64,000 nucleotides of DNA from an uncultured Candidatus Rokubacteria bacterium (lineage in GTDB: Bacteria > Methylomirabilota > Methylomirabilia > Rokubacteriales > DASRDR01). The translations under genes were made by a program, and so were the position numbers. The DNA lies in NCBI GenBank assembly GCA_963765195.1, contig CAVXVV010000088.1:358529-422528 (forward strand), in the 5' to 3' direction. Shown in pieces: positions 31,215 through 32,407 of the stretch (positions are counted from its first letter, which is position 1; the number at the start of each line of letters is the position of its first letter). The notes below the pieces were generated by a model. The model was not told where the DNA came from, did not search any database, and worked only from the letters and a program-made list of their open reading frames with translations.

Positions 31215-31595
31215 ATGGCAGCAGGCTCGGCGAGCTTTCACGAGGCCGAGGACAAGCTGACGCCGATGACGCGCGACATGCATCGCGCCATCGTCAGCCT
31301 GATGGAGGAGCTCGAGGCCATCGACTGGTACCAGCAGCGCATCGACGCGGCCGGGGATGGCGAGCTGAAGGACATCCTTCGCCACAACCGTGACGAGGAG
31401 AAGGAGCACGCGGCGATGGTGCTGGAGTGGATTCGCCGTCGGGACGCCGGCTTCGACGAGGTGCTGCGGAGCTTCCTGTTCACGGAGCGGCCCATCACCG
31501 CGCTCGAGCCGGACGCGCCCACCGGCAACGGCCGACGCGGCGGCGGGTCGAAGGAGCCGTCCGTGACCGTCGGATCCCTGAGAGGAGCCCGCTGA
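31215..31595 (+). CDS. encapsulin-associated ferritin-like protein (EncFtn/Flp cargo) with a C-terminal targeting peptide
   Basis: GAGGAGG RBS. Has ferritin-like EExxH regions (LMEELEAIDWYQQR, RDEEKEHAAMVLEW), then a flexible G/R-rich linker and a C-terminal TVGSLRG, which matches encapsulin cargo-loading peptides. Confidence 0.85.
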   Translation: MAAGSASFHEAEDKLTPMTRDMHRAIVSLMEELEAIDWYQQRIDAAGDGELKDILRHNRDEEKEHAAMVLEWIRRRDAGFDEVLRSFLFTERPITALEPDAPTGNGRRGGGSKEPSVTVGSLRGAR

Positions 31596-32407
31596 TGGAC
31601 ATTCTGCGACGGAGCAGCGCCCAGCTGTCGGACGAGGTGTGGAAGGAGCTCGACGAGGCGGCGGCCACCGCGGCGAAGAACGTCATGACCGCCCGGCGCA
31701 TCGCGACGTTCGACGGGCCGCGAGGATGGGACTACATCGCAACGCCGCTCGGCACCATGCAGGCGTGCGCCACCCGCGAGGGGAAGGCAGTCGTCTGCGT
31801 GCCGGAGATCGCGCTCCTCGCGCAGATCCGCGCGGACTTCAGCTTGCCCTGGTCGGCGGTGGAGGCCTTCGAGCGCGGCGGGCCGGCGATGGACACGTCG
31901 ACCGCGGAGGCGGCGGCCCGCGAGGTCGGGCTCGCCGAGGACCGCCTCGCGTACTCCGGCGAGCCCGTGGGCACGGGATTCCTCGAGGACCCCGTCTCCC
32001 CTCGCATCCGGCTCGGCGACTGGTCGGATCCGGCCCGCGTGATCGCGGACCTCGTCGGCGCGGTGGAGCTGCTGGACCGCCAGACGGTGCCGGGCCCGTA
32101 CGAGGCGGTCCTCTCGCCGGACCGGTACTACGCGTATCTCGCCGCGGCGAATCGCGGCTATCCGGTGCCCCGACACACGAAGAACATCATCGCCGACGTG
32201 CATCGCTCGCTCGTGATGCACGACGGCGGCGCGCTCTTCTCGATGCGCGGCGGCGACTTCATCCTCACCGTCGGCGGCGATCTCGCGGTGGGCTACCGTT
32301 CGCATGACCGCGACGCGCTCCACCTGTTCTGCGTCGAGACCATCGCGCCGCAGACGCTGGAGCCCGAAGCCGTGTGCGTCCTGGAAGGGACTCGCCCGGC
32401 CGCCTGA
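31595..32407 (+). CDS. family 1 encapsulin nanocompartment shell protein (HK97 fold; Linocin_M18)
   Basis: ATG overlaps the EncFtn stop as TGATG. MDILRRSSAQLSDEVWKELDEAAATAAKNVMTARRIATFDGPRGWDYIA, and a C-terminal ...GGDFILTVGGDLAVGYRSHDRDALHLFCVETIAPQTLEPEAVCVLE, align with the T. maritima encapsulin N- and C-termini. Confidence 0.85.
   Translation: MDILRRSSAQLSDEVWKELDEAAATAAKNVMTARRIATFDGPRGWDYIATPLGTMQACATREGKAVVCVPEIALLAQIRADFSLPWSAVEAFERGGPAMDTSTAEAAAREVGLAEDRLAYSGEPVGTGFLEDPVSPRIRLGDWSDPARVIADLVGAVELLDRQTVPGPYEAVLSPDRYYAYLAAANRGYPVPRHTKNIIADVHRSLVMHDGGALFSMRGGDFILTVGGDLAVGYRSHDRDALHLFCVETIAPQTLEPEAVCVLEGTRPAA

Follow-up and report, generated by a model that had tools for sequence, protein, structure and literature searches.

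What do a ferritin-like gene and the HK97-fold gene that follows it encode together in the genome of an uncultured Candidatus Rokubacteria bacterium: a compartment for iron, a device against oxidative stress, or the leftover of a phage? The two genes lie on the + strand at 31215-32407, the cargo gene first and the shell gene second, within a 64-kb stretch of DNA that we call the window (Table 1). A first-pass annotation had described them as a two-gene encapsulin nanocompartment operon with an encapsulated ferritin (EncFtn) as cargo, and profile matches, predicted fold, targeting tag and adjacency all support that description. We are highly confident that the two genes form a family 1 (classical) encapsulin operon for an iron-oxidising, iron-storing nanocompartment.

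Table 1. Features of the encFtn-enc locus, in window coordinates.
Feature	Position	Strand	Remark
Shine-Dalgarno-like GAGAGGAGG	31200-31208	+	6 nt 5' of the cargo ATG; read from the sequence
encFtn, encapsulated ferritin-like cargo, 126 aa	31215-31595	+	catalytic core = residues 1-98
Predicted di-iron site residues	E32 31308-31310; E62 31398-31400; H65 31407-31409	+	with Y39 31329-31331
Variable Gly/Pro/Arg-rich linker, residues 99-117	31509-31565	+	between ferritin core and targeting peptide
Predicted C-terminal targeting (cargo-loading) peptide TVGSLRGAR, residues 118-126	31566-31592	+	homolog conservation
Shine-Dalgarno-like GAGAGGAG for the shell gene	31580-31587	+	7 nt between GAGAGGAG and ATG 31595
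TGATG stop/start overlap, translational coupling signature	31593-31597	+	cargo TGA 31593-31595, shell ATG 31595-31597, one base in common
enc, family 1 encapsulin shell gene, 270 aa	31595-32407	+	ATG 31595
Strong GC-rich stem-loop	32402-32498	+	just past the shell stop, without U-tract

The architecture of the locus is that of a tightly linked pair. Both open reading frames proposed earlier are borne out on the + strand, and the TGATG coupling claimed for them can be read directly from the DNA. Nine related loci extend into the DNA upstream of the shell gene, and in every one, across three phyla, encFtn stands directly upstream of enc; they belong to MAGs of Methylomirabilota/Rokubacteria (shell identity 61-92%), to Acidobacteria gp5 (48-50%) and to a MAG of the Thermotogaceae (27%). 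The TGATG overlap recurs in L001 and in L003-L006, and a similar GGAGG is also found 5' of the cargo gene in L001-L006. In the window the ribosome-binding site of the shell gene, GAGAGGAG, is embedded in the Leu-Arg-Gly codons of the cargo's tag, and the GGAG(G) serving the shell gene occupies the same position in L001-L006. The mechanical list of reading frames gives a longer ORF in the shell frame (326 aa, from GTG 31427 to 32407); because the shell homologs measure 265-270 aa, and 60 of them, when aligned, all share M1, we take ATG 31595 to be the real start. Third-position GC, at 0.90 in the cargo ORF and 0.87 in the mechanical shell-frame ORF (31427-32407) in DNA of 71% GC, fits real coding frames, as in the other real genes of the window.

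Past the shell stop, the stem-loop at 32402-32498 has a minimum free energy of -60.9 kcal/mol, against a mean of -48.3 for shuffled sequences (z -3.6; 0/200 shuffles as stable). A scan of 30500-33500 with promoter and terminator consensus patterns returned no canonical terminator and no sigma-70-like promoter for the encFtn-enc pair; the stem-loop escapes such a scan since it lacks a T-run. Its role may be to end or to stabilise the transcript, and it marks the 3' boundary of the two-gene unit. In the archaeal Flp-fusion encapsulins of the Pyrococcus furiosus type the same two modules, an Flp/EncFtn domain and a shell, are fused in one polypeptide (PMC8346489), whereas here they are encoded by separate, coupled genes. 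A 421-aa apparent EncFtn-encapsulin fusion (P0229/L011) was discarded as an assembly indel or frameshift artefact, since its translation is scrambled by out-of-frame stretches within both domains.

The first gene product belongs to the encapsulated ferritins, as had been claimed. It scores above the curated cut-offs of Pfam PF22277 (EncFtn-like; E 1e-39, 134.6 bits, cut-off 27) and of NCBIfam TIGR04535 (encapsulin-associated ferritin-like protein; 137.9 bits, cut-off 125, over profile positions 1-114 of 114). Membership in the M. xanthus-type EncB family was considered and rejected: the score is just below the cut-off for EncB_fam NF058679 (89.1 bits, cut-off 90) and far from it for EncB NF058678 (25.1 bits, cut-off 210), so that the protein is related to that family but filed elsewhere. 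Its best matches among solved structures are the EncFtn of R. rubrum (E 4e-37 and 6e-34), that of H. ochraceum (E 5e-33) and Nitrosomonas NE0167. With R. rubrum EncFtn (Rru_A0973; PDB 5DA5) it shares 59% identity in an ungapped alignment, and residue numbering therefore transfers directly, with identical numbers for the key residues. These lie in and near two motifs, EELEA (E31, E32, E34) and EEKEH (E61, E62, E64, H65): E31, E32, E34, W38, Y39, E62 and H65 are all in register with the R. rubrum protein and are conserved in 98-100% of 115 cargo homologs.

In R. rubrum, crystallography and mutagenesis have assigned E32, E62 and H65 to the di-iron ferroxidase centre, with Y39 beside it, and Glu31 and Glu34 to an entry site; the protein has ferroxidase activity, and iron mineral is retained only inside the shell (PMC5012862). 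Judged by these residues, the window cargo should be an encapsulated ferritin in which every predicted ferroxidase-centre and entry-site position is occupied as in the model protein, and its ungapped identity with the solved decamer suggests a two-helix subunit that would likewise form a D5 decamer. The R. rubrum system is also laid out alike, with the cargo upstream of the shell, a linker and a C-terminal tag. It differs in that the linker sequences are unrelated, the tag of the window protein is TVGSLRGAR, and the host here is of Methylomirabilota/Rokubacteria type.

How the cargo would enter the shell is suggested by its C-terminus, which reads ...SVTVGSLRGAR (EPSVTVGSLRGAR). The first pass had the protein end in TVGSLRG; the peptide is indeed there, but two further residues, Ala-Arg, follow it. 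Across the 115 homologs, G120, S121, L122 and R123 are 97% conserved and G124 91%, and [VIL]GSLR occurs inside the last 25 residues in 111. The linker behaves in the opposite way: the query residue is found in fewer than 70% of the homologs everywhere except at G105 (80-89% class) and in fewer than 10% at some positions, compared with 90-100% for core and tag. Such a pattern, in which the core and the short tail are conserved while the linker between them varies, is the signature of a family 1 cargo-loading peptide, and the targeting role proposed for the tail thus withstands the test of ortholog conservation. The localisation sequences of family 1 are of the class GSL[K/R], given as Gly-Ser-Leu-Lys in PMC5012862 and as the consensus SDGSLGIGSLKRS in PMC8346489, and TVGSLRGAR is, as expected, a predicted cargo-loading peptide of this kind. 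In H. ochraceum, whose T=1 shell holds EncFtn decamers inside, the localisation motif is GxLGIxxL (PMC8791618). The pose in which TVGSLRGAR would dock is assumed, because the tag here is of the single TVGSLR type, a lone VGSLRG unit, and not the longer GxLGIxxL resolved there.

EncFtn alone qualifies as tagged cargo: a six-frame search of the 64-kb window for ORFs of 60 aa or more with a GSL[RK]-type tail found no second one, and the two other GSLRG strings in the window are internal or lie in short non-coding frames. A 186-aa ORF downstream of the Acidobacteria shells was also considered as tagged cargo and rejected, being membrane-protein-like and without the tag. In the Acidobacteria/Terriglobia relatives L008, L009, L012 and L013, EncFtn itself ends in ...TGGRRWNG, without the GSLRG tag, and overlaps the shell gene, which lies in the -1 frame, by 13 nt.

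The task of such a compartment could be read in more than one way. It is possible, though in our judgement rather unlikely, that its main role is the detoxification of oxidative stress (removal of Fe(II) with consumption of O2/H2O2), co-regulated with a trehalose/M48/PsiE stress island, rather than the storage of iron. A dual role has been proposed for Flp encapsulins (PMC8346489), the genes from glgX through the hyp277 gene (34348-35181) are co-directional, and only 52 nt separate treY from encFtn. Upstream lie genes for a GlgC-like nucleotidyltransferase, GlgX (isoamylase) and TreY (TIGR02401, 946 bits); downstream follow an M48 peptidase whose N-terminus is of lipoprotein type, a membrane protein weakly assigned to the PsiE family and an unannotated 277-aa protein and, further on, a gene of the Pup-ligase family and a 555-aa ORF without annotation. 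The setting between treY and an M48/PsiE pair, as described in the first pass, is therefore correct as far as the genes go, but the PsiE call is weak (33.6 bits in Pfam, no match in NCBIfam).

The stress-gene-rich region that was also described there does not emerge. The wider window carries glycogen/trehalose metabolism, two-component signalling, envelope genes and a gas-vesicle cluster, that is, mostly glycogen/trehalose, signalling and gas-vesicle genes and no clear stress island. The GlgX-TreY and M48-PsiE-277aa flanks recur in the two closest MAGs (L001 and L002), which would agree with a shared stress role, and in these only; they are not kept in relatives at 61-64% or 48-50% identity. 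In the other Rokubacteria loci their place is taken by a divergent Rieske ferredoxin and, downstream, by a gene of the metallo-beta-lactamase fold, and the Acidobacteria loci are flanked by GSDH, DinB and PALP genes. The neighbourhood is therefore uninformative on function; we considered the flanks as a clue and drew nothing from them, and the contextual support claimed for an iron or oxidative stress role is lost, the flanks being replaced in relatives beyond L001 and L002. The conserved unit is the two-gene module. Also, a strong hairpin lies between enc and the M48 gene, and the consensus scan of 30500-33500 found no regulatory site. Storage and detoxification could in any case go together, and the sequence by itself cannot tell them apart.

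The second gene product is a family 1 encapsulin. The claim of an HK97-fold shell of this family agrees with scores above the curated cut-offs of Pfam PF04454 (Linocin_M18; E 1.1e-56, 192.4 bits, cut-off 24.3, over about the whole 253-position profile) and of the NCBIfam equivalog NF041155 encap_f1 (198.6 bits, cut-off 100, positions 1-261 of 261). The full-length profile matches of cargo and shell (E 1e-39 and 1e-56) are far beyond chance. The T. maritima encapsulin (maritimacin; 3DKT, 7KQ5), whose cargo is an Flp, aligns with the shell end to end, residues 1-263 onto 1-263 at 30% identity with three small gaps (3DKT, E 1.8e-34). It is likewise a T=1 shell of HK97 fold with a ferritin-like cargo encoded upstream, and at the Thermotogaceae locus L010 the two genes follow each other as they do in the window. 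The T. maritima protein lacks the clade-specific C58, C68, C246 and C261 of the window shell, and its tag presumably differs in sequence from ours.

Structure prediction leads to the same family. A first AlphaFold model, built from a shallow alignment of 60 close homologs at 60-94% identity, was poor (pLDDT 58, TM about 0.45) and yet retrieved encapsulins only; we dropped it as unreliable and replaced it with a second one, for which the alignment was enriched, by profile search, with homologs at ~50% identity and one at 26% (pLDDT 92.7, pTM 0.88). This model contains a short helical turn at 6-8, an N-terminal helix at ~13-28, the E-loop beta-hairpin at ~49-74, a long P-domain helix at 102-121, a mixed alpha/beta A-domain at ~131-221 and C-terminal P-domain strands at 222-264, so that the P-domain, A-domain and E-loop features expected by the first-pass annotation are all present in a predicted full HK97-type encapsulin fold. 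The top 50 Foldseek matches in the PDB are exclusively encapsulins. T=1 shells superpose on the model with TM 0.83-0.88 and rmsd 2.7-3.2 A over ~268 columns: best of all the Enc:EncFtn shell of H. ochraceum (7ODW, also 7OE2; TM 0.86/0.88, rmsd 2.7 A for 7ODW), despite a sequence identity of just ~28-30%, followed by those of M. tuberculosis (9BKX; TM 0.86, 2.8 A), B. linens (7BCV; TM 0.86, 2.8 A) and T. maritima (7KQ5; TM 0.83, 3.2 A, E 8e-26). In family 1 encapsulins an N-terminal helix replaces the extended N-arm of phage capsids and forms part of the tag-binding pocket (PMC8346489), and the window shell has such a helix, at 13-28 in the model, together with an alignment to T. maritima that begins at residue 1.

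From the ~3 A fit to T=1 protomers, and from the absence of ~13-15 residues that larger shells possess, we infer that the shell is most likely a 60-subunit T=1 icosahedron of ~24 nm, with moderate confidence since the prediction of a monomer cannot fix quasi-equivalence. The same system might instead build a T=3 (180-mer) or T=4 (240-mer) shell of much higher iron capacity, like those of M. xanthus and Q. thermotolerans, an option that we hold to be improbable. It would gain from the tag, as TVGSLR resembles what we take to be the LTVGSLRR tags of M. xanthus EncB/C. It also resembles the TVGSL motif of the ferredoxins in Firmicute IMEF systems (PMC8346489), the EncB_fam score of the cargo comes within a bit of its cut-off, and the T number is beyond the reach of a monomer model. 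The shell protein itself speaks otherwise: its 270 residues align with the T=1 protein of T. maritima from end to end, whereas the alignments with M. xanthus EncA (query 2-266 to chain 3-281) and with the Q. thermotolerans shell require ~13-15 extra target residues and score far lower (E 1e-14 and 5e-10), and the T=3 and T=4 protomers (M. xanthus 8VJO, Q. thermotolerans 6NJ8) fit the model at 6-7 A rmsd, as opposed to 2.7-3.2 A for T=1. The M. xanthus shell alone can form T=1 as well as T=3 particles, as its PDB entries attest. The T=3 iron store of M. xanthus also relies on tagged ferritin-like ferroxidases, the activity predicted here by homology, but EncA is longer (287 aa), EncB and EncC match the window cargo weakly (E 9e-8 to 6e-4), and several cargo genes serve that shell where the window has a single tagged ORF in 64 kb.

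The E-loop, which in T=1 encapsulins is swung away from the A-domain (PMC8791618), carries a feature of its own in this clade. In an alignment of 232 shell sequences (that of the window and 231 homologs), C58 and C68 covary perfectly: both are present in 117 and one alone in none. In the other clade, Ala or Val pairs with Ser or Leu at these positions. Residues 59 and 67 form a beta-bridge at the tip of the E-loop in the model, and the two cysteines should therefore be cross-strand neighbours. From this covariation and supposed proximity one could speculate that a reversible C58-C68 disulfide makes the E-loop more rigid or ties shell assembly or pore dynamics to the redox state of the cell, an idea that we consider very doubtful; if true, this encapsulin would be redox-switched and would faintly recall, in function, the covalent cross-link that the HK97 capsid forms at its E-loop.

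Encapsulins and phage capsids have the HK97 fold in common and are often mistaken for each other in annotation (PMC8346489), but the reading of the shell gene as the remnant of a phage or prophage HK97-type major capsid, with the ferritin-like gene as an unrelated neighbour, is effectively refuted by a search of the PHROGs that matched neither protein, by a family 1 encapsulin equivalog cut-off exceeded about twofold, by top structural matches that are all encapsulins, by the lack of terminase, portal and protease genes among the Pfam-tested neighbours, and by an adjoining gene that bears a conserved loading tag in a pair conserved across phyla.

If the pair is indeed an encapsulin operon for iron, the characterised homologs suggest how it would work. 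The two-helix, ferritin-like EncFtn would assemble into D5 decamers, at whose subunit interfaces E32, E62 and H65 would build di-iron ferroxidase centres, and a flexible linker of ~20 residues would present the C-terminal TVGSLRGAR. Translation of the shell would be coupled to that of the cargo through the TGATG overlap, with the ribosome-binding site inside the tag codons, and the HK97-fold protein would then self-assemble, most likely into the T=1 icosahedron of 60 subunits and ~24 nm. While the shell assembles, the tag would dock in a lumenal pocket that the N-terminal helix and the P-domain build together, and the EncFtn decamers would be trapped inside through this docking. Fe(II) would pass the shell pores to be oxidised by EncFtn, and the shell would keep the ferric mineral, the expected outcome being iron storage together with protection from Fenton chemistry.

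Among the cargo classes of family 1 encapsulins, Flp/EncFtn ranks second in size, with reports from 23 bacterial phyla (PMC8346489). For both proteins, close homologs in Methylomirabilota/Rokubacteria are already public, some under the names "family 1 encapsulin nanocompartment shell protein" and "ferritin-like domain-containing protein", and a search of the literature for encapsulin in Rokubacteria turned up no more than a passing mention. The pair thus represents an EncFtn/family 1 encapsulin iron compartment of the canonical type in a lineage of uncultivated soil bacteria, and it matters mainly for correct annotation. The E-loop cysteines and the tag-less EncFtn of the Acidobacteria are the only points that might repay more work, and the short, conserved TVGSLRG could serve as a compact loading tag in encapsulin engineering. 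For the biology of the group, our results imply that Methylomirabilota/Rokubacteria possess a predicted high-capacity device for the storage or detoxification of iron, encoded beside a gas-vesicle cluster.

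The Shine-Dalgarno sequence of the shell gene is encoded by codons of the C-terminal targeting peptide (tag) of the encapsulated ferritin (EncFtn), where the Arg and Gly codons are A-rich against 71% GC DNA. As GGAG(G) is also retained at this position in the related encapsulin loci L001-L006, comparison of the sequences argues for a joint constraint on the targeting tag and the shell ribosome-binding site. Directly 3' of the shell stop lies a GC-rich double stem-loop that is very stable (-60.9 kcal/mol, z -3.6); it lacks a U-tract, and the terminator scan makes no call there.

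The Acidobacteria/Terriglobia relatives (L008, L009, L012 and L013) have shells with 48-50% identity to that of the window, and the coding sequence of their EncFtn, 111-112 aa long, shares 13 nt with the start (ATG) of the shell gene, which is read in frame -1 relative to the cargo. Reading the C-termini of these four cargo proteins, we found that they end in ...TGGRRWNG* and that the GSLRG targeting tail is absent. A tag was also looked for in a downstream 186-aa ORF conserved in the Acidobacteria relatives, and none was found. In these relatives the cargo might be loaded through another tag, by co-assembly without any tag, or as a frameshift fusion.

Locus L011, flanked by alpha-amylase and M48 genes as in the window, carries P0229, annotated as a single 421-aa protein with EncFtn and Linocin_M18 (encapsulin shell) domains. 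We rejected it as a bacterial Flp-fusion encapsulin, because its translation has frame-scrambled stretches that mark it as an assembly indel artefact.

Two of the shell cysteines, C58 and C68, covary strictly: in an alignment of the window shell with 231 homologs, 117 of the 232 sequences have the two together and none has a single one. A disulfide or metal contact between them is possible, since in the predicted structure they stand on either side of the beta-bridge between residues 59 and 67, at the tip of the E-loop. C246 and C261 are kept in nearly all homologs belonging to the Rokubacteria-type and Acidobacteria-type clades alike. Unlike the window shell, the Thermotoga maritima encapsulin has a cysteine at none of these four positions.

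Features of the window and of related loci
Feature	Locus	Position	Strand	Remark
TreZ-like alpha-amylase/DUF3459 protein, GDE-type debranching enzyme	window	993-4960		
GlgC-like nucleotidyltransferase, GlgX, TreY	window	25063-31162		
Shell Shine-Dalgarno GAGAGGAG	window	31580-31587		within tag codons CTG AGA GGA (Leu-Arg-Gly)
Shell C58 codon	window	31766-31768		
Shell C68 codon	window	31796-31798		
Double stem-loop	window	32402-32498		
277-aa ORF	window	34348-35181		
Pup-ligase family protein	window	35550-36941	-	PF03136, E 7e-154
555-aa ORF	window	36985-38652		
GvpA/J-type genes (two)	window	39072-39590; 39594-39929		
PAS histidine kinase, response regulator	window	39933-42526		inserted within gas-vesicle cluster
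GvpL/F genes (two)	window	42531-43490; 46819-47550		
GvpG	window	43487-43741		
ArsA-like ATPases	window	43812-45816		
EncFtn ORF	L008 (Acidobacteria gp5/Terriglobia)	5678-6013		
EncFtn ORF	L009 (Acidobacteria gp5/Terriglobia)	5468-6013		mechanical ORF from upstream TTG; EncFtn-homologous part from near 5660
EncFtn ORF	L012 (Acidobacteria gp5/Terriglobia)	2175-2513		
EncFtn ORF	L013 (Acidobacteria gp5/Terriglobia)	2175-2513		
P0229	L011	2501-3766		

Elsewhere in the window, glycogen/trehalose genes occupy two sites, in the second of which the GlgX stop is overlapped by the TreY start, and some 7 kb further downstream than the encapsulin pair there is a gas-vesicle gene cluster (39072-47550). 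Two sizeable ORFs gave no Pfam match: one of 277 aa, with a hydrophobic glycine-rich middle and syntenic in the two closest MAGs (L001 and L002), and one of 555 aa, whose N-terminal half is coiled-coil-like, with transmembrane segments towards the C-terminus. Between them, the PF03136 match points to a pupylation-type system in a non-actinobacterial, Methylomirabilota/Rokubacteria-like genome.
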